A stretch of 64,000 nucleotides of DNA from Patescibacteria group bacterium (GCA_041649575.1 JBAZMW010000004.1:21687-85686), one strand, 5' to 3'; positions 2,076-49,239 are shown, counted from the stretch's first letter. Numbers and translations are program-made. The notes: generated from the sequence alone by a model not told the origin.

Positions 2076-4730
2076 CTATTTCAAACTCTGCAAATTATCT
2101 TTTAATTTTAACACTTTTTCCTGGGCCATGGCCAGTTTTTCCTTTTCCCCGTCTACCACTATTTTAGGAGCGTGGCTAATAAACTCCTGGCCAGCCAACT
2201 TAACCTCTAAATTTTTTATATATTTTTCTAACTCGCCAATCTCCTTATTTAAACGCTCTTGTTCTGCTACCCTATTAATTGTAACCGATAAATCCAAATA
2301 TATCTGTGCCTGGTTGGTTACGGCACCAAGACTACTAGCTGGCTTCTGGCTGATGTTGTCGGTGACAGTCAAAGATTCTAGACGAGCCAGACGCTTGATA
2401 ATAACCGCTTGCGACTCGAGCAATTCTTTTTGCCCACTGATAATTACCGCTTTCAATAATTTAGCTGGCTCAATTTTGTTTTCACTGCGTAAATTTCTAA
2501 TGGAAGTGATGATCTGTTTTATTAATTCAAAATCTTTATTCTTGGCCGGCCCGGCTTTAACCGCGGGCCAAGTTTCGACCATCAATAAACCGCTGTCAAA
2601 ATTATGCCAAAGCTCTTCGGTAATAAAGGGGCAGAAAGGATGCCAGAGCCGCAAAATATTTTGCAAGACATAAAGCAGAATTTCATCCTTATCACCCTCG
2701 ATTTTGGCAATCTCCAAATACCAATCGGCAAAACAATCCCAGGTAAATTCCTGCAGTTTTTCCGCAGCTAAAGAAAACTCATATTTATCCATCAAATGCT
2801 CAATTAAATGAGTTGTCGCCTCCAGTTCTTGCAAAATCCAATGGTCGGACAAGGTCTGGGCGGTTGGCTTGGCCGTAATTATTTTAATGTCATCGACTGA
2901 CTGCAAAATAAACCGAGAAATATTCCAAAGCTTATTAATAAAATTCCTGGCGCCAGCCACTTTCTCCTCGAAAAATCTCATATCATTACCCGGGGTCGTG
3001 CCTTTAAGTAAGCTAAGCCGCAGGGCATCGGTGCCGTATTTTTCTATAATCTCCAACGGGTCCAGCCCATTACCGGCCGATTTAGAAAACTTTTTGCCAT
3101 TTTTGTCACGTAACATGCCATGAATATAGACCTCCTTGAATGGGATATCGTCTAAAGCATAGGCGGACAAGAGAATCATCCGCGCCATCCAAAAAAATAA
3201 AATTTCATAACCCATCTGCATCCAGGAGGTAGGGTGAAATTTTTTTAGGTCCGCTGTCTGGTCGGGCCAGCCAAGGGTCGAGAAAGTCCAGGCGCCAGAG
3301 GAAAACCAGGTATCTAGGGTATCTTCGTCTTGTCTGATATTTTTACTCTGACATTTTGGACATTTTAACGGACTACCTTCGCTAAAAAATATTTCTTGGC
3401 AATCATCACAATACCAAACTGGTAAACGATGGCCCCACCAAATCTGACGTGAAATACACCAATCACGCAAATTATCAATCCAATGCAAATAAATACTTTG
3501 AAATCGGTTAGGTGTAATTTTGATAATTTTATCCTGATCGCCGCTGTGGCCCGTAGTAACCGCTTCACGCATTAAATCTTTCAAGCTCTGGTCGCGGCCA
3601 GTAATTTTTTTATTAACATCAACAAACCACTGATCCATCGGCAGGGCTTCGACAACATCTTTGAAACGATCGGAGGTACCGACGTTATGTTCGATTTCTT
3701 CTTCACCAACATAAAGGCCATTATCTTTAAGCCAGTTAACAAATTTATCCCGCGCCTCCAAAACCGTTAAACCCTCATAACCCGGACCAGCGGCCTTAAG
3801 CATCCGGCCATCACGGCCAATGACCGGTGTAATACCGATATCTTTGTTATTCTGATACATTTCAAAATCGATCTGGCTGTGAGCCGGTGTCACACCCACG
3901 GCGCCAGTGCCATAATTCATGTCAACATTCTTATCGCCAATGACAGTGATTGTCAGCGGCCGCTCGGCACCGACATCGACTGTGAATTTCTGGCCAATAA
4001 ATTTTTGGTATTTCCCATCATCGGGATGAACCGCTACCGCAGTGTCCCCCAGCTTGGTTTCTGGACGAGTGGTGGCAATGGTAATGGGAAAATCCTTGGA
4101 ATATCTAAAAGTATAGACCCTCGTCTTTTTTGTTTCATAAACCAGCTCGTCATCGGAACAAGTGCTTTGTCCCTTGACCGACCAGTTGACCACCCGATAA
4201 CCGCGATAAATCAAGCCATCATCAAACATCATCTTAAAAAGCTTATTAACAGCAGCCGACCTCTTATCGTCAAAAGTATAGGCCAAACGCGACCAGTCGC
4301 AAGAAGTGCCCATTTTTTTGATTTGACCAATGATGATGCTTTTGTGATTCTCTGCGAATTCGCGAATTCGCTTCAACAGTTCTTCACGTCCTAACTCTTG
4401 ACGCGGATTGGTAATGCCCTGTTTTTTCAGCTCGTCTTCGACCCTGGCTTGAGTGGCCACGGCGGCATGATCCGTGCCGGGAACTATTAAGGCGCGTTTG
4501 CCTTTCATCCGCTGATAACGAATCTCGATATCCATTAGAGAATTTTCAAAAGCGTGACCCAAGTGTAAAATACCCGTGACGTTGGGCGGCGGCATGGAAA
4601 TAACAAAAACCTCGGGACGATCACCCGGCAATTTGTCAGGATCAAAAAAACCGGAAGCTTCCCATTTTTGATAAATCTGGTCTTCGACTGTTGCGGCTTC
4701 GTAAGTTTTAGGTAATTCGATTTTGGCCAT
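2076..4730 (-). CDS. valS: valyl-tRNA synthetase
   Basis: 884 aa with PPPNVTGILHLGH (HIGH motif), KFSKSAGN (KMSKS motif), an editing domain and a C-terminal coiled coil. Confidence 0.9.
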   Translation of the reverse strand: MAKIELPKTYEAATVEDQIYQKWEASGFFDPDKLPGDRPEVFVISMPPPNVTGILHLGHAFENSLMDIEIRYQRMKGKRALIVPGTDHAAVATQARVEDELKKQGITNPRQELGREELLKRIREFAENHKSIIIGQIKKMGTSCDWSRLAYTFDDKRSAAVNKLFKMMFDDGLIYRGYRVVNWSVKGQSTCSDDELVYETKKTRVYTFRYSKDFPITIATTRPETKLGDTAVAVHPDDGKYQKFIGQKFTVDVGAERPLTITVIGDKNVDMNYGTGAVGVTPAHSQIDFEMYQNNKDIGITPVIGRDGRMLKAAGPGYEGLTVLEARDKFVNWLKDNGLYVGEEEIEHNVGTSDRFKDVVEALPMDQWFVDVNKKITGRDQSLKDLMREAVTTGHSGDQDKIIKITPNRFQSIYLHWIDNLRDWCISRQIWWGHRLPVWYCDDCQEIFFSEGSPLKCPKCQSKNIRQDEDTLDTWFSSGAWTFSTLGWPDQTADLKKFHPTSWMQMGYEILFFWMARMILLSAYALDDIPFKEVYIHGMLRDKNGKKFSKSAGNGLDPLEIIEKYGTDALRLSLLKGTTPGNDMRFFEEKVAGARNFINKLWNISRFILQSVDDIKIITAKPTAQTLSDHWILQELEATTHLIEHLMDKYEFSLAAEKLQEFTWDCFADWYLEIAKIEGDKDEILLYVLQNILRLWHPFCPFITEELWHNFDSGLLMVETWPAVKAGPAKNKDFELIKQIITSIRNLRSENKIEPAKLLKAVIISGQKELLESQAVIIKRLARLESLTVTDNISQKPASSLGAVTNQAQIYLDLSVTINRVAEQERLNKEIGELEKYIKNLEVKLAGQEFISHAPKIVVDGEKEKLAMAQEKVLKLKDNLQSLK

Positions 4731-12626: not shown

Positions 12627-13661
12627 ATGGATTTAGAATCTCTTTTACAAAAAGCGGTGGGACAAGAAGCTTCTGATTTTCATCTGATTGCCAATCTCCA
12701 ACCCTTTATCAGAATCGATGGGGAATTAAAACAACTAGATAAAAAGATATTTGAACCGAAAGAAATAGAAATTTTAGTCAAAAGAATCATCAGTGAACAA
12801 CAACTAAAAAGATTTTTAGTGGAGAAAGAATTGGATTTTGCTTATGAAACTTCCGACGGTTATCGTTTCCGTATAAATTTACACTTGGAAAAAGGCAATT
12901 TTGGCCTATCAGCCAGAGTGATTCCAAAAGAAATACCTTCAATGGAAGATGTGGACATGCCCGAGACCGTCTATCGCCTATGCGGTTTGGAGCGAGGGCT
13001 GATTATCGTCACCGGCCCGACCGGCTGCGGCAAATCCACGTCGCTGGCGGCAATGATTGATTACATAAATGAGAATCGCAATGTTAATATCATTACTTTG
13101 GAAGACCCGATTGAATTTCTCTTCAAGCCGAAAAAAAGTATTGTCCGCCAAAGACAACTAGGTTCCGATATGCTTTCCTTTCAAAACGGCTTGACTCATG
13201 TCTTGCGCCAGGACCCAAACGTGATCATGGTGGGAGAGATGAGAAACCTAGAAACTATCGCCGCCACCATCACTCTGGCGGAAACCGGACACCTGGTCTT
13301 TGCCACCCTGCACACCTACAGCGCCTCCCAAACCATCGACAGAATCATCGATATTTTTCCTCCTCACCAACAAAACCAAATCCGCATGCAAATATCCATC
13401 ACCCTGCAAGGCATCATCTCGCAACGACTGATTCCACGTGCCGATCATGGCCGAGTGGCCGCCCGAGAAGTGCTTCTTAATACGCCGGCGGTAGCCAACA
13501 TGATCAGAGAAAATAAAATTGCCCAAATCAAAACCGCCATCCAGACCGGCGCTAAGGAAGGCATGGTCACTATGGATAATTATCTTCTGAATCTATTTCA
13601 AAACGGCATAATTTCCAAAGAAACCTTCAATAACAATATTTCGGCCATACCAAAAGAATAA
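12627..13661 (+). CDS. pilT: type IV pilus retraction (twitching motility) ATPase PilT
   Basis: Walker A GPTGCGKST and an Asp box; PilT/PilU-like length (344 aa). Confidence 0.8.
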   Translation: MDLESLLQKAVGQEASDFHLIANLQPFIRIDGELKQLDKKIFEPKEIEILVKRIISEQQLKRFLVEKELDFAYETSDGYRFRINLHLEKGNFGLSARVIPKEIPSMEDVDMPETVYRLCGLERGLIIVTGPTGCGKSTSLAAMIDYINENRNVNIITLEDPIEFLFKPKKSIVRQRQLGSDMLSFQNGLTHVLRQDPNVIMVGEMRNLETIAATITLAETGHLVFATLHTYSASQTIDRIIDIFPPHQQNQIRMQISITLQGIISQRLIPRADHGRVAAREVLLNTPAVANMIRENKIAQIKTAIQTGAKEGMVTMDNYLLNLFQNGIISKETFNNNISAIPKE

Positions 13662-13759
13662 ACGGCCTTCTCTAAAGGTCAGTCTCGTTTGACGCTAAGG
13701 GATTGATCTTTTTTGTTTTTTTTGTTAACCTATAAATGTTCTTCTAAATTTTTATTTTA

Positions 13760-13785
13760 GCTCTCGTAGTGAAATGGATATCACG
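13760..13785 (+). repeat. duplicated 5' half of tRNA-Arg (acceptor + D-arm), 25/26 identical to 13812-13837
   Basis: GCTCTCGTAGTGAAATGGATATCACG matches GCCCTCGTAGTGAAATGGATATCACG. Confidence 0.75.
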
Positions 13786-13811
13786 ACAGACTCCTGCCCG
13801 CCACTGCCTAC

Positions 13812-13883
13812 GCCCTCGTAGTGAAATGGATATCACGCTTGGCTTCGGACCAAGAATTTTGGGTTCGAATCCTGACGAGGGCG
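13812..13883 (+). tRNA. tRNA-Arg (anticodon UCG)
   Basis: Acceptor GCCCTCG/CGAGGGC, D-arm GTGA-AATGGATA-TCAC, anticodon arm CTTGG-CTTCGGA-CCAAG, T-arm TTGGG-TTCGAAT-CCTGA. Confidence 0.75.
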
Positions 13884-13916
13884 TTGGCGATGGCAGGCGG
13901 GTCGGATCTGTTATTG

Positions 13917-13940
13917 GGGGTTCGAATCCTGACGAGGGCG
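13917..13940 (+). repeat. duplicated 3' portion of tRNA-Arg (T-arm + acceptor 3' strand)
   Basis: GGGTTCGAATCCTGACGAGGGCGTT is identical to 13861-13885; the intervening spacers (13786-13811 and 13884-13916) are partly reverse-complementary. Confidence 0.7.
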
Positions 13941-14061
13941 TTACCGCGTGGGATGTTAGCTTCCGCCTCGGCTCGCTTTGTTCGCCAAGGCGAGACAGGC
14001 AGCTAGGCTACGGATCAGACTGGAAGAGTATGATAAACAATTTACATAAAACGAGTAATAT

Positions 14062-14134
14062 GGGACGTTAGCTCAGTTGGTAGAGCAGTTGCCTCTTAAG
14101 CAAACGGTCGCAGGTTCGAATCCTGCACGTCCCA
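14062..14134 (+). tRNA. tRNA-Lys (anticodon CUU)
   Basis: GGGACGT/ACGTCCC acceptor, GCTCAGTTGGTAGAGC D-arm, anticodon loop CTCTTAA, T-arm GCAGGTTCGAATCCTGC. Confidence 0.85.
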
Positions 14135-14145
14135 AAAATTTAAAA

Positions 14146-14172
14146 GCCGCCGTTAGGCGGATTTTATTTATC
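14146..14172. terminator. bidirectional intrinsic terminator
   Basis: GCCGCC-gtta-GGCGGATTTTATTT on the plus strand; on the minus strand GGCGG is followed by CTTTTAAATTTTT. Confidence 0.55.
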
Positions 14173-14259
14173 TTAAATGTTTATTTAAAAAATGGTGGGC
14201 CACCGAGAGGTTGTTCCTCGGCAGCCCAGCAATCCTCGTTGCTCGGCGACCACTCACGC

Positions 14260-14391
14260 TCACTTGCGCAAGCAGCCGAGCACTGTCGACGCTACTCCGG
14301 ACAGCAGGGCGACAACCGATGTCGCAATCCACCAGCCGTCGACGTCGTAGTGCGCCGCGCGCGGCTTCGTCAAAACCTTAACATGCCTCAT
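14260..14391 (-). CDS. small hydrophobic peptide (43 aa, MRHVKVLTKPRAAHYDVDGWWIATSVVALLSGVASTVLGCLRK), type I toxin-like candidate
   Basis: Minus-strand promoter TTGACA-17-TAGAGT (14483..14455); GGAGGG RBS 9 nt upstream of ATG; one predicted TM helix; structured about 70-nt 3' UTR and terminator near 14185-14215; region is about 58% GC. Confidence 0.4.
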   Translation of the reverse strand: MRHVKVLTKPRAAHYDVDGWWIATSVVALLSGVASTVLGCLRK

Positions 14392-14454
14392 GTGCTAGAC
14401 CCTCCAATGCTCTTTCAGTCTCACAACCTCCAGTTCCCACGCGGAACTGGCACC

Positions 14455-14483
14455 ACTCTATCAAACAAAACAATTTTTGTCAA
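14455..14483 (-). promoter_or_regulatory. sigma70-type promoter (TTGACA-17-TAGAGT) on minus strand
   Basis: Read on the minus strand: TTGACAaaaattgttttgtttgaTAGAGT; lies just downstream of the hup terminator. Confidence 0.5.
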
Positions 14484-14545
14484 GATAACTTTTTTCAAAA
14501 AACCGCCCCAATAAGAGGCGGTGAAACTAACATTTTTTAAGGTTT

Positions 14546-14872
14546 TTACTGGCCTGCTTCAACAGTCGATGCCGGTTCGGTTCGTTTGTCTTCTTTGCCT
14601 TTCAGGGCGTCTTTTAGATTTTTGCCGGCTTTGAACTTGGCCACCACTACCGAGGGAATGGCAATTTTTTCTTGAGGATTTCTGGGGTTAATCCCTTCGC
14701 GGCCTTTTCTGGCACGAGCCGAAAAGGTACCAAAACCGGTCAGGGTCACCTCGCCGCCAGCCTTAATGGTCTCGGTAGTAATCTGAGTGAGAGTGTTTAA
14801 AGCTTCCTCTGCCTGCGGTTTGGTAATTCCAACCCGCTCAGCAATTTTTTCGGCTAATTCTGCTTTATTCAT
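14546..14872 (-). CDS. hup: HU family DNA-binding protein with short C-terminal extension
   Basis: MNKAELAEKIAE ... GFGTFSARARKGREGINPRN is the HU/IHF fold signature. Confidence 0.85.
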   Translation of the reverse strand: MNKAELAEKIAERVGITKPQAEEALNTLTQITTETIKAGGEVTLTGFGTFSARARKGREGINPRNPQEKIAIPSVVVAKFKAGKNLKDALKGKEDKRTEPASTVEAGQ

Positions 14873-14906
14873 AAAATGGTCTCCTTTCCAAATAAATTAT
14901 AAATTA

Positions 14907-15701
14907 TTAAACTTTTATTATTTTATTAATTCTTGTTATTTTTTTGATTTTCTTGGTTTTGGTGTCAATTTCTAAATACACCCCGTTGAGTTGACAGCGG
15001 CCGAATTCTGGCAAGTCATGCTTCTTGGAACCACGACCGCGGCCCAAGAAAAGATTAAAAATCTGCTCGGGATTGGCGCCGATAACCGAATCTTTATAAC
15101 CAATCATGCCGGCATCAGTAATATAGCCGGTACCAGCCGGCAAAATCTGCTCATCGGCGGTGGGCACGTGGGTATGAGTACCAATAACAGCCGCCACTTG
15201 CCCGTCGAAATAACGAGCGAAAGCAACCTTTTCAGAAGTGGCTTCGGCATGAAAATCAACCAAAAATATACCCTTTTTGATCTTTTTTAGAATCTTTTCC
15301 ATGGTTTTGAAAGGGCAAGCTGTTTTGTCCGGGATAAAAACTCTACCTAATAAGTTTACCACAATTAGTTTATTTGAGCCAATTTTTACCTCTTTGAAAC
15401 CCACGCCTGATTTTCTGGCCGAGTAATTAGCCGGTCGAACTAAATTTATTTCAGAATCATTTAAAATTTCATCACTACCAGCCTTTTTCCAAGCATGATT
15501 GCCAGAAGTGAAGAAATCCACGCCAGAGACTGACATCTCCGCCAAAGTCTTTTTGGTAAAACCAATACCATGAGCCAGATTTTCCACATTGGCAACGATT
15601 AAATCCGGATGATATTGCTTTCTTAACTTGGGTAGTTGCTGTTTAACGGCCTGACGGCCAATTTTACCGACAATATCAGCAAGAAAAATTACTTTAATCA
15701 T
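14907..15701 (-). CDS. ymdB: YmdB-like metallophosphoesterase (TIGR00282 family)
   Basis: MIKVIFLADIVGKIGR ... GNHAW ... GTHTHVPTAD are metallophosphoesterase motifs; lies downstream of rny as in Bacillus. Confidence 0.75.
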   Translation of the reverse strand: MIKVIFLADIVGKIGRQAVKQQLPKLRKQYHPDLIVANVENLAHGIGFTKKTLAEMSVSGVDFFTSGNHAWKKAGSDEILNDSEINLVRPANYSARKSGVGFKEVKIGSNKLIVVNLLGRVFIPDKTACPFKTMEKILKKIKKGIFLVDFHAEATSEKVAFARYFDGQVAAVIGTHTHVPTADEQILPAGTGYITDAGMIGYKDSVIGANPEQIFNLFLGRGRGSKKHDLPEFGRCQLNGVYLEIDTKTKKIKKITRINKIIKV

Positions 15702-31064: not shown

Positions 31065-31288
31065 CATTATTTGTTGCTGATTAATTCTTAATTTCTGAGC
31101 ATTGAACGGTAAAGTTATGCTACTATATTTTACAAAAAAAGTCAATTAACCTTATTGGATTAATATATTTTATAACCAGCTTTTACAAAAAAAGGGCCAG
31201 CGATACGAGATCACTGTCCCTTGGAAAATCGCGGCCGAAGGCCAAGGATTCAATCCAATGGCCAAGCGGCCGAAAACCGAAGTCCAGA

Positions 31289-32251
31289 CTACCCGAGGCA
31301 GAACACCGACGCCGAATAGTCGTCGCTGGCATACGACAGATAGTCGGTGTAGTCGAAGTTCGCATAGGAATCGTAGGCGAGGAAGCGGAGCGAGTAGGAC
31401 TGCCACTGAAGAGCCGGGCAGCGCACTATTGGTGTCTTGGCGTCTCGGCAGAGCTCCTTGGCATAGGCCATGTAAGCCACTGCCGTGTCCAAGCCGCCGC
31501 CCAAGAGCATCCATTCGGGAATCTGGGCGGACAGTTCATGCCCGACGAAGGTCTCGCGACAAGCGTCGACGCTGTAACCGCCGAAAGGCAGAAGCGTGAC
31601 GCCGACAACCGGTTCTTTGGCCAAGGCGGCGAGCAGACACTCGTGCCGACTGCCGGCTACGATGCTGACCTCGCCGGCCAAGTCGGTTTCACGGTAGTTC
31701 GTGAACTTCCTGCCCTCGGCCTCGAAGGCTTCCTCATAAGCGCTCCTCACCCCGTCGACAAAAAGCTTCAAGGTGGCGCCGTAGCCACCTTTGTCCTCCG
31801 GCAGAATCGTGCCCGCTGGCAGAACAGTCGGCAGCCAAATGCCTTTGACGGCATTGGCCGTGCGAGGATCGCCCGCCAGCCTGGTGATAGTGGCCTTGGC
31901 TCGTACTTCGAATTCCTCGGCCGACGGCAAGCTGAGCGCCTCGGCTTTGACTCGCAGTCCGATGGCCAGATGCCGACGGACGCGCTCGAGGATCTCGCCG
32001 TAGTTGATCGAGGGTTGGTTGACGTAATACGCGCCAGCGTCGCAGAACGCAGCTTTGAGTCCGGGAAACGGAATGAAGCGGCTGTTCTTGTCGAACAGCT
32101 TACGGACGGTCTCCTTGATCTCCGCGGTCATTTCGTGACGCAGCAGCGCCTTGACGACATTGACGCCGCCAAGCTGGTTGCCAAGCGCCACCCAGTGGGT
32201 ATGTGGCAGGTCGTCCAGTGTTTCCAGTTGATCAATGTTAAAGTCCTTCAT
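31289..32251 (-). CDS. hypothetical protein D (320 aa) of GC-rich island
   Basis: RBS AAAGGAG; strong promoter TTGACA-17-TATAAT at 32363..32335; about 60% GC; no recognisable domain. Confidence 0.5.
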   Translation of the reverse strand: MKDFNIDQLETLDDLPHTHWVALGNQLGGVNVVKALLRHEMTAEIKETVRKLFDKNSRFIPFPGLKAAFCDAGAYYVNQPSINYGEILERVRRHLAIGLRVKAEALSLPSAEEFEVRAKATITRLAGDPRTANAVKGIWLPTVLPAGTILPEDKGGYGATLKLFVDGVRSAYEEAFEAEGRKFTNYRETDLAGEVSIVAGSRHECLLAALAKEPVVGVTLLPFGGYSVDACRETFVGHELSAQIPEWMLLGGGLDTAVAYMAYAKELCRDAKTPIVRCPALQWQSYSLRFLAYDSYANFDYTDYLSYASDDYSASVFCLG

Positions 32252-32334
32252 CTTGCGCTCCTTTCAGCCCATGGCCGAAATGGCTTTTCCCCTACCCGAG
32301 GATTGGGAACAGTCCTACGCAGGACCATCAGACT

Positions 32335-32363
32335 ATTATACTAAATAAAAAATAATCTGTCAA
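32335..32363 (-). promoter_or_regulatory. consensus sigma70 promoter (TTGACA-17-TATAAT) on minus strand
   Basis: Minus strand: TTGACAgattattttttatttagTATAAT in the AT-rich spacer upstream of gene D. Confidence 0.6.
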
Positions 32364-32520
32364 TACTAACAAATTATTTAAAGTTAAATAAAAACTTCCT
32401 CATCTGTCCGGCCAAGCTTCTTGAATGAGATAGAAACTATCTCAAACAAGAAGAAGAGAGAGTTTGGCCGGACGAATGAAGAAGCTTTAAAAGTATTCCT
32501 CAAAACTTGTAAAAAAGATT

Positions 32521-32569
32521 TGCAAGTTTAGTTGGAAGGAGAAGCTGACAAACCACATCAGCTTCTCCC
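32521..32569. repeat. island repeat, short copy 3
   Basis: TGCAAGTTTAGTTGGAAGGAGAAGCTGA-caaaccaca-TCAGCTTCTCC: 11-bp perfect hairpin plus the CCAGTTGGAAGGAG-like core. Confidence 0.6.
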
Positions 32570-32593
32570 AAAACCATCTACCGATCAAGGCCG

Positions 32594-33451
32594 CTAGGCC
32601 TTGGCGATGACGGCGCGAGTTGCCTCAACCGCCGCCACGACGTCGGCCAGCATCATGCGCTGACCGCGGGGACTGCCGGCGATGCCCGCGTGCCCGCCGG
32701 CCGCCTCGCCCCAAAGCCCCTGCACGATCTCTCGTGCCGAGACTCCGGGGATCGGGTCGGCGATAGACACTGTCACCGCACCGGTGACTGTGTTGAAGGC
32801 GACAACAGCTTTCGCCAAGTCGCCTTCCGGGTCGACGTACAGATGGCTGACAAACGTGTCCGCCACCCGCACTGCCACCCCGCCGCCAGCCTCGACGAAC
32901 GATTGCGCATTCAGCGCGACCTCCGCCGAGCGGAACGCCTCGCCCGCCGCGAGAAGTTCCGGGTCGTCAGCGCAAATGCGCTCAACGACCCTGACGGCCT
33001 CCATCACCTGCTCGGTGACTTCGGCCGCGCTGCCGTCGCGCGGGGGCAGGCAGCGGTGACCGTTGCTCCACGCCCAGAAAGCGTAGAGCCGGACGATGTC
33101 GGCTGGCTCGGCGCCGGCTTGGCCTAGCTTGTGCGGACCGTTGAGGTCCACAAAAGCTGCCAGGAGCCAGAATCCCGGCGTCTCGGGCTTGCGACCGAGA
33201 ACGGCCGCACAGCCGCCGACGGAATCGAGATCAAGGTGGGAAAGTCCCACCGCCTCGACTTCACCAGCCGCGCCGTTGTCGGCGAGGCAGGGGGCGGGGT
33301 TGCCCGCCCGCGGCCCGTGATGGGCCAGGGTTGCGACGGACCCGGCGACACACTCGTCGCCGAATTCCGCCTCAACCGAAGCGGTCAGGCCGAAGGGGGC
33401 GAGGACGGCGGCCAATGCGGCCGCATGGTTTGAAATAAAAAACTTCGTCAT
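32594..33451 (-). CDS. hypothetical protein C (285 aa), about 68% GC; faint DHH/DHHA1-like motifs (HLDLDSVGG ... AAGGHAGIAGSP)
   Basis: RBS AGGAGA 7 nt upstream of ATG; longest frame in the region; the motif resemblance is weak and unverified. Confidence 0.45.
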   Translation of the reverse strand: MTKFFISNHAAALAAVLAPFGLTASVEAEFGDECVAGSVATLAHHGPRAGNPAPCLADNGAAGEVEAVGLSHLDLDSVGGCAAVLGRKPETPGFWLLAAFVDLNGPHKLGQAGAEPADIVRLYAFWAWSNGHRCLPPRDGSAAEVTEQVMEAVRVVERICADDPELLAAGEAFRSAEVALNAQSFVEAGGGVAVRVADTFVSHLYVDPEGDLAKAVVAFNTVTGAVTVSIADPIPGVSAREIVQGLWGEAAGGHAGIAGSPRGQRMMLADVVAAVEATRAVIAKA

Positions 33452-33560
33452 GGCTTATCTCCTCTCTCGGAGTTTCAGCGCGCCACGCGCTGTGCCTCTC
33501 TCTGGTTTATCAAACCCTGCAAGCGAGAGACAAACTGGCAACTCCGCGCCGACAACCGGT

Positions 33561-33724
33561 GCAGAGTTTTTTCCTCAAGCCCCGCAAACTCACATTGTTT
33601 GCGAAGCCAGTTGGAAGGAGGAGACAGAAAAACCACTCTGACTCCTCCGGATAACCTTGTTTGCGTTTGTAACGAGGCCGCCGCCTCCGATTGTTTGACC
33701 TCTAACAATCGTAAAGGAGTGTTC
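33561..33724. repeat. island repeat, long copy 1 (164 nt, multi-hairpin)
   Basis: About 96% identical to 34422-34585; contains the TGCGAAGCCAGTTGGAAGGAGGAG core plus hairpins GGAGGAGACAGA/TCTGACTCCTCC, GCAAAC/GTTTGC and CGATTGTT/AACAATCG. Confidence 0.75.
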
Positions 33725-33762
33725 AGATTAAGGCCTAACACACAAGGTCTTTCTGGCGTGAC

Positions 33763-34333
33763 CTACTCGGACAGCGTGATGATCAGGTCTTTGACCTGAT
33801 CATCACGCTCAGACCAGACGGCGTTGGCTGGCTTCTGCCACCACCGCTTCTTCGGTGCGCCCCATTCGGCGGCGCATTCAGCGAAGTGGCTGCAATCCCC
33901 CCCCGAATCCGCGCAACAGAGCGCGTAATACGCGGCTAGCGCTCGGCGTTCGGCCGCGATACCAGAGGAGGAGCAGCAGAAGGCAGCGACGTCACCCGCT
34001 ACCTTTTTCGCCCGGGCGAGTTGCTCCGGAGAACTTACATTCTCCAGATAACCGCGGGCCCACTCTTCAACATCCGCGATGTCGCACATCGCGGCATGCT
34101 GCGCTACGATCCTTCTGGAAACGCGCACAGCCCACTTATTCGCTAGCTCCTTGGCTAGCGAATAAGAGGCGAGGCAAATGATTTCGTAGCTTGAAAATTT
34201 CCACGAAATCAGAGCATCCACGTCCTCCCTCCTAAACTCATTGCCCGCCCCATACCAGCGGCGGGCCACTTCTCTTTCGCATTTAGGAAAGCTCCTGAGA
34301 GCTTCCCTCAGGGTTCTGTACCTTTTCAAGTTC
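33763..34333 (-). CDS. hypothetical protein B (190 aa) of GC-rich island
   Basis: RBS GGAAAGGAGAGAGAG-ATG; the longer upstream frame is an artefact of running into repeat copy 2. Confidence 0.5.
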
Positions 34334-34421
34334 ATCTCTCTCTCCTTTCCGGATGTGGCCGAGATGTGGCCGGTCCCCTCGGAAACTACCATATATCCAA
34401 AACTCCGCACCGACCATCGGC

Positions 34422-34585
34422 GCAGAGTTTTTTCCTCAGGCCCCGCAAACTCACATTGTTTGCGAAGCCAGTTGGAAGGAGGAGACAGAAAAACCACTCT
34501 GACTCCTCCAAATAACCTTGTTTGCGTTTGTAATGAGGCCGCCGCCTCCGACTGTTTGACCTCTAACAATCGTAAAGGAGTGTTC
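34422..34585. repeat. island repeat, long copy 2
   Basis: Near-identical to 33561-33724. Confidence 0.75.
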
Positions 34586-34717
34586 TAATTAAGCTCTTGC
34601 GAGCCGGCCTAACACACAAGGCCGTTTGCCCATGATTTTACGCGGATGGCTTCTGCCCTTGACACGGGCCAAGGACTTTACCGCAACCGCCGAAGCGGGC
34701 TGTGAGGACGCCGAAGG

Positions 34718-35206
34718 TTACTTGGCTTTCGGCATCCCCGGCAGCTCCTGGAGCTGTCGGATGAAGGGGCCGACGATGTCGGCCACCTCCGAACGGAAGC
34801 ACGTTTGTGCTTCCATCGCGCACTCGCAGTCACCAACGGCGATTGCGAATGGAGGAAGGGGAAGTTCCACCGCCTCTTCCGGCAGTGAAACTTCCACCTG
34901 CAGAGGATATTCTCCCCCACAAATGTCTTCTGCCAATACCTGAATATGATCCAGGTAACCGCCCACGCTCACGTAGCGGCGAAACTCCGCCGCCACACTC
35001 GACACGCCCACCGAATATGAAACGGCGAACGTGCCCGACCGGGAGGATAGGCTAACCTCCATCCCGGCCTTCGTAAGAATGACGTACCCGCCATCATTAC
35101 GACCCACCTTCCACCCCGCTGCTACTGCAGCGGAGATGGGAATATTCCCTTCCCGCGGCCAGTTCGACCGCAGAAAAGACTTAACCCCTTCAGAATAGAA
35201 ACTCAT
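34718..35206 (-). CDS. hypothetical protein A (162 aa) of GC-rich island
   Basis: RBS AAAGGAGATAAGTT-ATG; no recognisable domain. Confidence 0.5.
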   Translation of the reverse strand: MSFYSEGVKSFLRSNWPREGNIPISAAVAAGWKVGRNDGGYVILTKAGMEVSLSSRSGTFAVSYSVGVSSVAAEFRRYVSVGGYLDHIQVLAEDICGGEYPLQVEVSLPEEAVELPLPPFAIAVGDCECAMEAQTCFRSEVADIVGPFIRQLQELPGMPKAK

Positions 35207-35404
35207 AACTTATCTCCTTTCACAGAGATCTCGGCCTGCCACAGGCCGTGTCCGCGAGGATCGACAATCCTCTTTTTTCGTCTCATGACGGCGGACAAAT
35301 TACTGCCAGTACCGCACAATGCGGCGCTGGTTTTTTCTATGCTTACCAGCCGCTGACCCAAGTCAGCTGCTAGGAATTTCCTCAGACTTCACGGACAACA
35401 GGCC

Positions 35405-48969: not shown

Positions 48970-49239
48970 TCAAGTGGCGACCGGTTCCCGAATAAACTTT
49001 TTTTGTTCAATTAAATTATCATCAACTATCATCACTTTTTCTCTTATCTCTATTACCCGACTACTATCGATGATTAAATCATGAACCAATAGCTTTTCAA
49101 CCAACTTGGGAGAAGAGACGATATATTTTTCCAATTGCTGGGTCTCACTGTTAAACTCAAAATCCTTTACCTGGCCTAATCTTTGACCACTTTCAGTCTC
49201 GACCTCCAGGCCAATTAGTTGTTTTTGATTAAGAAACAT
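48970..49239 (-). CDS. PRC-barrel domain protein (YlmC/YmxH-like)
   Basis: 89 aa with a GLEVETESGQRLGQVKDFEF PRC-barrel pattern. Confidence 0.55.
   Translation of the reverse strand: MFLNQKQLIGLEVETESGQRLGQVKDFEFNSETQQLEKYIVSSPKLVEKLLVHDLIIDSSRVIEIREKVMIVDDNLIEQKKFIREPVAT

Follow-up and report, generated by a model that had tools for sequence, protein, structure and literature searches.

A GC-rich insertion between hup and tRNA-Lys in a Patescibacteria genome with a candidate gene for a 43-residue single-helix peptide

The unit between hup and tRNA-Lys

In the DNA analyzed here, a stretch of 64 kb from a Patescibacteria MAG which is referred to as the window at its full length, the spacer between hup and tRNA-Lys harbors a transcription unit on the minus strand (Table 1). 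The unit follows the hup terminator and is convergent with the tRNA-Lys gene. An earlier note on this DNA had described a minus-strand promoter, a GGAGGG, an ATG, an ORF of 43 codons and a terminator behind that of hup, and all of these features are found where they had been placed. In a promoter scan covering positions 13500-15200 the sigma-70-type promoter of the unit reached 10/12 consensus matches with an additional TG before the -10 box, and it is located within AT-rich, host-like DNA. It is followed by a leader of ~57-63 nt, which carries a hairpin at its 5' end and presents the Shine-Dalgarno sequence in a predicted hairpin loop. The 3' end of the window's 16S rRNA, ...CACCTCCTTTCT, carries the anti-SD sequence CCTCC, and therefore Shine-Dalgarno pairing is available to this organism.

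The ORF encodes a peptide with a hydrophilic N-terminal part of 19 residues, which is followed by a C-terminal hydrophobic helix, WWIATSVVALLSGVASTVLGCL, and by the two residues RK at the end; the Kyte-Doolittle maximum for a window of 19 residues is 1.89. The stems GCTCGGC/GCCGAGC and GTCGACG/CGTCGAC, listed earlier for the 3' UTR, are both present in the sequence. The intrinsic terminator of the unit is the strongest terminator of the region, and its stem is followed on the 3' side by CCATTTTTT. Beyond it, a short bidirectional hairpin in the host DNA outside of the insert terminates tRNA-Lys on the plus strand and, on the minus strand, backs up the terminator of the unit.

Table 1. Positions of the unit and of its neighboring features, counted from the first nucleotide of the window.
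Feature	Position	Strand	Remark
hup	14872-14546	-	upstream neighbor of the unit
hup terminator	14522-14502	-	5' of the unit's promoter
Sigma-70-type promoter	14455..14483	-	-35 TTGACA 14483-14478; 17-nt spacer; TG 14463-14462; -10 TAGAGT 14460-14455
Inserted GC-rich block, ~260 bp, 61% GC	14193..14454	-	equals the transcribed region, from ~+1 to the base of the terminator
Leader hairpin at the 5' end, 8 bp, CCAGUUCC-GCGUG-GGAACUGG	14430..14450	-	in MFE and centroid structures
Shine-Dalgarno sequence GGAGGG	14400..14405	-	ATG 8 nt downstream; predicted in a 15-nt hairpin loop
ORF, 43 codons and TGA, MRHVKVLTKPRAAHYDVDGWWIATSVVALLSGVASTVLGCLRK	14260..14391	-	ATG at 14391
Intrinsic terminator	14187..14228	-	13-bp stem and 7-nt loop (14228-14196), CCA, T6 (14192-14187)
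Bidirectional 5-bp GC hairpin	14147..14160	both	found in a terminator scan of both strands
tRNA-Lys(ctt)	14061-14135	+	convergent with the unit

Observations were also made on the tRNA genes beside the unit. At 13760-13942 on the plus strand a tRNA is found inside a tRNA: a complete tRNA-Arg(tcg) (13811-13884) caps a long stem, which continues for ~19 bp beyond the acceptor stem of this inner tRNA (27-nt arms, 81% complementary), and the stem together with the inner tRNA interrupts the anticodon loop of a second, outer sequence that resembles tRNA-Arg(tcg), with CT on one side of the insertion and TCGGA on the other. The 5' part of the outer sequence (13760-13785) is 96% identical to that of the inner tRNA, its T-arm and the 3' part of its acceptor (~13919-13941) are identical to those of the inner tRNA over ~25 nt, and its anticodon stem reads ACAGA/TCTGT. 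The fold predicted for this 191-nt region matches the arrangement exactly (-85.7 kcal/mol, z = -4.8); ARAGORN reports the inner tRNA-Arg gene only, and the tRNA-Arg looks ordinary in the related loci L010 and L085. Moreover, at 13949-14060 on the plus strand the initial 12 nt of tRNA-Lys (TGGGATGTTAGCT) occur a second time, 112 nt upstream of the real gene, with a GC-rich hairpin behind them. The locus L085 is similar at its positions 3729-3907, where a 25-nt copy of the leader and the tRNA-Lys 5' end precedes, in this order, ~105 nt of GC-rich insert, AGAGCAGTTGGGAAGC, which resembles the D-stem/anticodon-stem region, and the full tRNA-Lys. The partial duplication of the tRNA-Lys 5' end recurs in this way in two genomes with a YmdB identity of only 70%.

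The GC-rich block in comparison to related genomes

The block stands out by its composition, with 61% GC at 14196-14454 compared to 44.6% for the whole window and 18% to 53% for the other unannotated gaps in the window; the earlier note had given ~58%. It is absent between hup and tRNA-Lys in four syntenic relatives. In three of these (L001, L018 and L021) the tRNA directly follows the hup terminator. In the fourth (L085), which encodes a 70% identical YmdB and shares the gene order RNase Y, YmdB, HU, tRNA-Lys, tRNA-Arg, PilT, RNase III, only 20 nt after hup are followed by one bidirectional terminator and then by tRNA-Lys. The block missing from all four loci is therefore a lineage-specific insertion.

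A multiple alignment of the spacers was uninformative and the flanks of the block were compared by pairwise local alignment, in which both AT-rich flanks align to the one short spacer that L001 has here. The score is 35 (p ~0.016) for the left flank, which includes the promoter stretch, and 33 (p < 0.002) for the right flank, which matches the spacer and its terminator. The alignment of the left flank takes in CTTGAyyAAAATTGTTT, which carries the -35 box, and since this promoter-bearing flank aligns to a spacer that is free of the element, the promoter region may predate the insert. The foreign origin that had been proposed from the GC content is thereby supported by the absence from the four relatives and by the alignment of the flanks. 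Over hup, the element and the junction to tRNA-Lys, the window is reproduced with 100% identity in two independent assemblies (L081 and L082), namely ENA k141_497544 and a Logan contig of 1.8 kb from SRR8542065, and the block is thus neither a chimera nor an assembly artefact. A MITE was considered and ruled out, as the block has no target-site duplication (flank duplication p = 0.14) and no terminal inverted repeats, its sole inverted match being internal rather than terminal, and as no second copy of the block or of the peptide was found within the 64-kb window on the DNA or the peptide level.

Two further observations concern this spacer in other genomes. In L001 (3400-3464) a promoter-like TTGCTT-17-TAGAAT is present at the position equivalent to 14455-14500 of the window and points into the tRNA-Lys terminator with ~30 nt left to transcribe; it might either be a remnant or decoy promoter or reflect antisense transcription toward tRNA-Lys that is conserved in the spacer. 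In L010 (3500-3905) the spacer between hup and tRNA-Lys holds a different insert, i.e., an AT-rich ORF of ~135 codons for a very hydrophobic multi-helix protein. As another membrane-protein ORF occupies the spacer there, the site is variable, and it appears to be a hotspot at which lineages acquire membrane-protein genes of their own.

The same comparison bears on a rather doubtful reading, according to which the block is non-functional foreign DNA, a high-GC fragment that settled in a tolerant spacer by a tRNA and downstream of a pre-existing promoter-like AT-rich sequence, with the ORF being a relic of the donor or fortuitous. The restriction of the block to one lineage, with none of the four syntenic relatives carrying it, would be expected for such DNA. 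Moreover, the promoter-like sequence may be older than the insert, as the alignment to the element-free L001 spacer suggests, and the different gene inserted at the same site in L010 would mark the site as a dumping ground. The lack of a homologue in any collection searched, described below, points in the same direction.

Another GC-rich region is present in the window. Directly after the rpsP and KH-domain genes an island of ~4 kb (~31170-35210) shows 55-62% GC per kb with a peak of 76% at 32528-33474. It contains four minus-strand ORFs (31289-32251, 32594-33451, 33763-34569 and 34718-35206), three of which show the codon-position bias of high-GC genes (GC3 > GC1 > GC2), the bias being weak in 33763-34569; none of the four has a Pfam match. 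Horizontal acquisition is probable for the island, which is similar in composition to the 43-codon ORF. With this second foreign GC-rich block in the window, the uptake of such DNA has a precedent here.

Homologues were searched for on the DNA and on the protein level. On the DNA level, neither blastn (word size 7) in 80 hup loci and 4 YmdB loci nor nhmmer in the 80 hup loci found a homologue of the block, and blastn against plasmids and phages gave only chance matches of 25-40 nt (actinobacterial phage tail genes, Azospirillum galE). Back-translated scans of JGI metagenome contigs, performed for the ORF frame and the antisense frame, and a degenerate back-translated scan of viral contigs gave no match. 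On the protein level, a phmmer search of 1.84 billion protein representatives with the peptide found no homologue; its six matches (P0002-P0007) are long TPR-like or other repeat proteins with scores summed over the repeats and were rejected as homologues. Similarly, a word-indexed set of 5.8 billion proteins yielded no candidate, and Pfam, PADLOC and PHROGs gave no match to the peptide.

NCBIfam gave one sub-threshold match, NF058583 (LAXTG_small_WW), with 14.9 bits compared to a curated cut-off of 65 (E = 0.015), in which residues 19-36 of the peptide align to positions 26-43 of the 54-position profile. Both are small proteins in which a WW pair is followed by a hydrophobic stretch. The peptide differs in having no LAXTG motif, the nearest string being VASTV, and with a score below the cut-off it does not qualify as a member of this family; the match may be driven by composition and is taken as a lead only.

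The isolation of the genome has to be considered here. The HU protein is the sole member of its 90% identity cluster, and its nearest relatives among 185,579 species genomes are from Candidatus Buchananbacteria and Parcubacteria MAGs with at most 84% identity; the source genome is described as Buchananbacteria-like. For the neighboring YmdB no relative above 72% identity was found among 5.8 billion proteins. The phylogenetic isolation limits every comparative test, and because no genome within ~70% protein identity has been sequenced, the absence of homologues says little on function.

Coding signals and RNA folding

Whether the ORF is expected by chance was assessed with 5000 dinucleotide shuffles of the transcript and with the window itself. 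As many as 53% of the shuffles contain an ORF of 43 codons or more, and GC-rich sequence easily yields open frames rich in Ala, Val, Leu and Gly. The fraction falls to 3.2% if a GGAGG 5-12 nt upstream is included, to 0.6% with an ATG in addition to the GGAGG, and to 0.06% if the GGAGG is combined with a membrane-like stretch (19-residue Kyte-Doolittle mean of at least 1.6). In the window, both strands together contain 382 ORFs of 30-70 aa. Five of these have an upstream GGAGG and two of the five are membrane-like; the 43-codon ORF is the only one of the 382 that combines ATG, GGAGG and a membrane-like stretch, the other membrane-like GGAGG ORF having a GTG start and lying antisense inside pilT.

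Moreover, the GC content at codon positions 1/2/3 of the ORF is 0.57/0.50/0.77 (chi-square p = 0.024), and it is flat if the same frame is followed across the two UTRs (p = 0.78). With a high-GC codon table derived from the four high-GC ORFs of the GC-rich island described above and scored against frame-shifted tables, the ORF frame reaches +16.5 bits, which is the best of the six frames, the next ones having +6.7 and +3.6 bits. Ensemble prediction gives pairing probabilities of 0.02-0.08 for GGAG of the Shine-Dalgarno sequence and of 0.27-0.44 for the AUG, and the ribosome binding site is predicted to be exposed. What is generally looked for in a small gene, i.e., a promoter, a Shine-Dalgarno sequence at 5-10 nt, a start codon, in-frame codon bias and a terminator, is found in one unit, and the earlier description of a stand-alone unit with a small ORF for a single-helix peptide is supported by this and by the frame specificity of the GC3 bias. 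Each of these coding tests is modest and was applied post hoc to 43 codons; they are largely independent and all point in the same direction.

These signals weigh against the non-functional reading, as a perfect Shine-Dalgarno sequence at ideal spacing, an ATG, a GC3 bias, an own terminator and the orientation behind a 10/12 promoter are an unlikely coincidence for junk; yet a useless donor gene that was captured recently would look alike.

The 43-aa ORF was picked by none of the gene calls. The ENA calls are empty between hup and pilT, and the Logan calls contain over the element only a truncated (137 aa) antisense ORF. The latter belongs to an open frame of 145 codons on the plus strand (14077-14514), which runs antisense over the whole element and into tRNA-Lys. 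Its GC content by codon position (0.79/0.49/0.57) is not coding-like, and the 145-aa ORF has no relatives among 5.8 billion proteins. This antisense ORF is a spurious call, and such calls can mask small genes on the opposite strand.

GC-rich islands in AT-richer genomes are often structural RNAs, and the unit could accordingly encode a non-coding sRNA of ~255 nt that acts by structure or base-pairing, with an incidental ORF, which we regard as improbable. The stand-alone organization from promoter to terminator, the GC content of 61%, which is similar to that of the tRNAs and rRNA of this genome, and the omission of the ORF by all gene callers are in line with an sRNA. Furthermore, the whole transcript folds at -120 kcal/mol (z = -3.2), and 8-9 nt of the leader, GGAGGUUGU, are complementary to the loop and the 3' arm of the terminator (p ~0.03). 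The low z-score is largely due to the terminator. Without it, i.e., for positions 1-226, z compared to dinucleotide shuffles is -0.44, and it is +0.35 for positions 32-226, -0.77 for the ORF alone and -1.4, which is not exceptional, for the 5' UTR; the 3' UTR with the terminator reaches -2.0. The heavy mRNA structure that had been ascribed to this transcript therefore reduces to its GC content and its terminator, as a sequence of this composition would fold as well by chance.

Comparison with known RNAs argues in the same direction. The element body (~14240-14460) matches no Rfam 15 family, neither at the gathering threshold nor up to E 10, and the weak matches listed lie in the flanking terminators, in the tRNA or in the final 100 nt of the element, GlsR20 (13.7 bits compared to 100) being a weak match that reaches 14287. 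Housekeeping RNAs (SRP, RNase P, 6S, tmRNA), riboswitches and leaders were ruled out as they have no Rfam match in the element up to E 10. Matches of the leader type are restricted to Thr_leader (15.4 bits compared to 55, E 2.8) and rimP, on the hup and tRNA-Lys flanks, and no Rfam leader family reaches even half of its gathering score. ARAGORN found no tRNA- or tmRNA-like gene in the element body, relaxed thresholds included, and its low-score call of a tRNA-Ser at 14433-14517 overlies the promoter and the 5' hairpin and is spurious. A tRNA-like 3' end, with the terminator read as a 12-bp helix, a 7-nt loop and ACCA, was rejected as the loop is not T-loop-like and ARAGORN returned nothing credible. 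A conserved syntenic RNA downstream of hup was rejected as well, as blastn and nhmmer against the loci of the relatives gave no match, and so was a complementary region acting in trans, as elsewhere in the window the highest similarity is 19/22 nt at 49190-49209 (E = 0.59), which is at chance level. Next to the missing Rfam and tRNA-type matches, the frame-specific GC3 bias and the exposed perfect ribosome binding site would be unexpected for an sRNA, and the element is not conserved in relatives.

Possible roles and likeness to known systems

As best explanation we put forward, at evenly balanced confidence, an orphan, horizontally acquired gene for a 43-residue peptide with a predicted C-terminal helix anchor. 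The ~260 bp of foreign GC-rich DNA in the variable spacer between hup and the 3' end of tRNA-Lys would constitute a complete monocistronic gene. A strong sigma-70-type promoter in the AT-rich host flank would start transcription at ~14448, and the resulting leader of ~57 nt would form a stable 5' hairpin and expose the perfect GGAGG, 8 nt from the ATG, in an open loop. Translation would then yield the 43-residue peptide, the C-terminal hydrophobic helix of 22 residues would insert into the cytoplasmic membrane with the charged N-terminal 19 residues staying cytoplasmic, and the 13-bp intrinsic terminator would end the RNA. The analysis shows the sequence signals and their rarity by chance, the codon bias of the frame, the ribosome binding site as exposed in the predicted fold and the insertion compared to syntenic genomes, while we infer transcription, translation and this membrane topology; as for a cellular role, the peptide could act as a small modulator in the membrane or perturb the membrane. 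No RNA antitoxin partner of the gene is visible.

The last point concerns the label of a type I toxin, which the earlier note had suggested with a question mark on grounds of size, topology and mRNA structure. A genuine type I toxin-antitoxin locus, in which a membrane-depolarising toxin would be paired with an antisense or nearby small RNA that escaped recognition, is very unlikely here. Its antitoxin could be a read-through transcript of tRNA-Lys that passes the weak 5-bp terminator and overlaps the 3' end of the unit, and such a convergent tRNA transcript exists; the unit also lies on apparently mobile or foreign DNA adjoining a tRNA gene. Moreover, the peptide passes the protein-level screen of Fozo et al., which asks for less than 70 aa, no fewer than 10 hydrophobic residues within a window of 15, a basic C-terminus and an intergenic location (Fozo et al., 2010; PMC2887945). 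Its window VVALLSGVASTVLGC contains 10 hydrophobic residues by hand count, and the C-terminal polar cluster comprises just two residues, which fits such a toxin less well.

A consensus scan of 13500-15200 gave no plus-strand promoter for an antisense RNA at the standard threshold. Under relaxed rules, a -35 match above 2/6 is reached by a single plus-strand hexamer, AACAAT at 14469 (4/6), which is located at the promoter-proximal edge, so that its transcript would enter hup and not cross the ORF; the other relaxed hexamers, including TAACAT at 14379 within the ORF, have -35 matches of only 1-2/6. A plus-strand promoter in or beside the unit, by which an antisense sRNA could be made, is thus not found in the consensus scan even with relaxed rules. 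The primary transcripts of the well-studied type I toxins are translationally inert. In contrast, the low pairing probabilities given above predict that the Shine-Dalgarno sequence and the AUG are accessible in the full-length mRNA, which shows no excess folding apart from the terminator. Furthermore, the peptide gene has no tandem or paralogous copy in the 64-kb window, and it matches no toxin or defence family in Pfam, PADLOC or PHROGs and none above the cut-off in NCBIfam. As the features that define the system are absent, the peptide is not filed as a type I toxin, although it may act like one. [quoted passage not shown] In a related and quite improbable scenario, the gene would be a horizontally acquired membrane toxin, antitoxin-less or non-canonically controlled, that was captured next to tRNA-Lys; its high-GC donor might be the host on which this organism likely lives as an episymbiont.

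If the peptide is translated, as the preferred reading of an acquired peptide gene holds, the reduced CPR genome would encode a small membrane protein of restricted taxonomic distribution that is unannotated and lies on recently captured high-GC DNA. This would add one small data point on gene gain in minimal, probably host-dependent bacteria, and it would also bear on the question of how many small proteins are missed by annotation. As a single copy in a single genome the case permits no generalisation and opens no long-standing question. As a lesson on methods, the 'heavy structure' of a GC-rich transcript can vanish once the terminator is removed and the composition is controlled for.

The unit can finally be compared with three kinds of known systems. 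The unit resembles leader-peptide transcription attenuators of the trpL type in that tandem Trp codons (GWW) lie within a short ORF, behind which hairpins and an intrinsic terminator are found. It differs in that 22 more codons follow the Trp pair, and a trpL-like attenuator was ruled out as no minus-strand gene lies downstream, where the convergent tRNA genes and pilT on the other strand come next.

With type I toxins of the Ldr/Fst kind, small hydrophobic peptides which are repressed by antisense RNAs, the peptide shares a size below 70 aa, one predicted transmembrane helix, a basic C-terminal end, tryptophans flanking the helix, an own promoter and terminator, an intergenic location and the fact that annotation misses them (Fozo et al., 2010; PMC2887945). 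The differences are that here no antitoxin RNA gene is detectable, the ribosome binding site is unsequestered, tandem copies and sequence similarity are absent, and the helix is C-terminal behind a hydrophilic head of 19 residues with a polar tail of RK only.

Small membrane proteins such as AcrZ and MgrB of E. coli modulate larger membrane complexes. In contrast to this kind, the peptide gene is not conserved, has hup and tRNA genes as neighbors rather than a transporter or sensor, and suggests no nameable partner. What it shares with the AcrZ/MgrB kind is a length of ~30-50 residues, a single helix, a short and often unannotated monocistronic gene and an accessible ribosome binding site.
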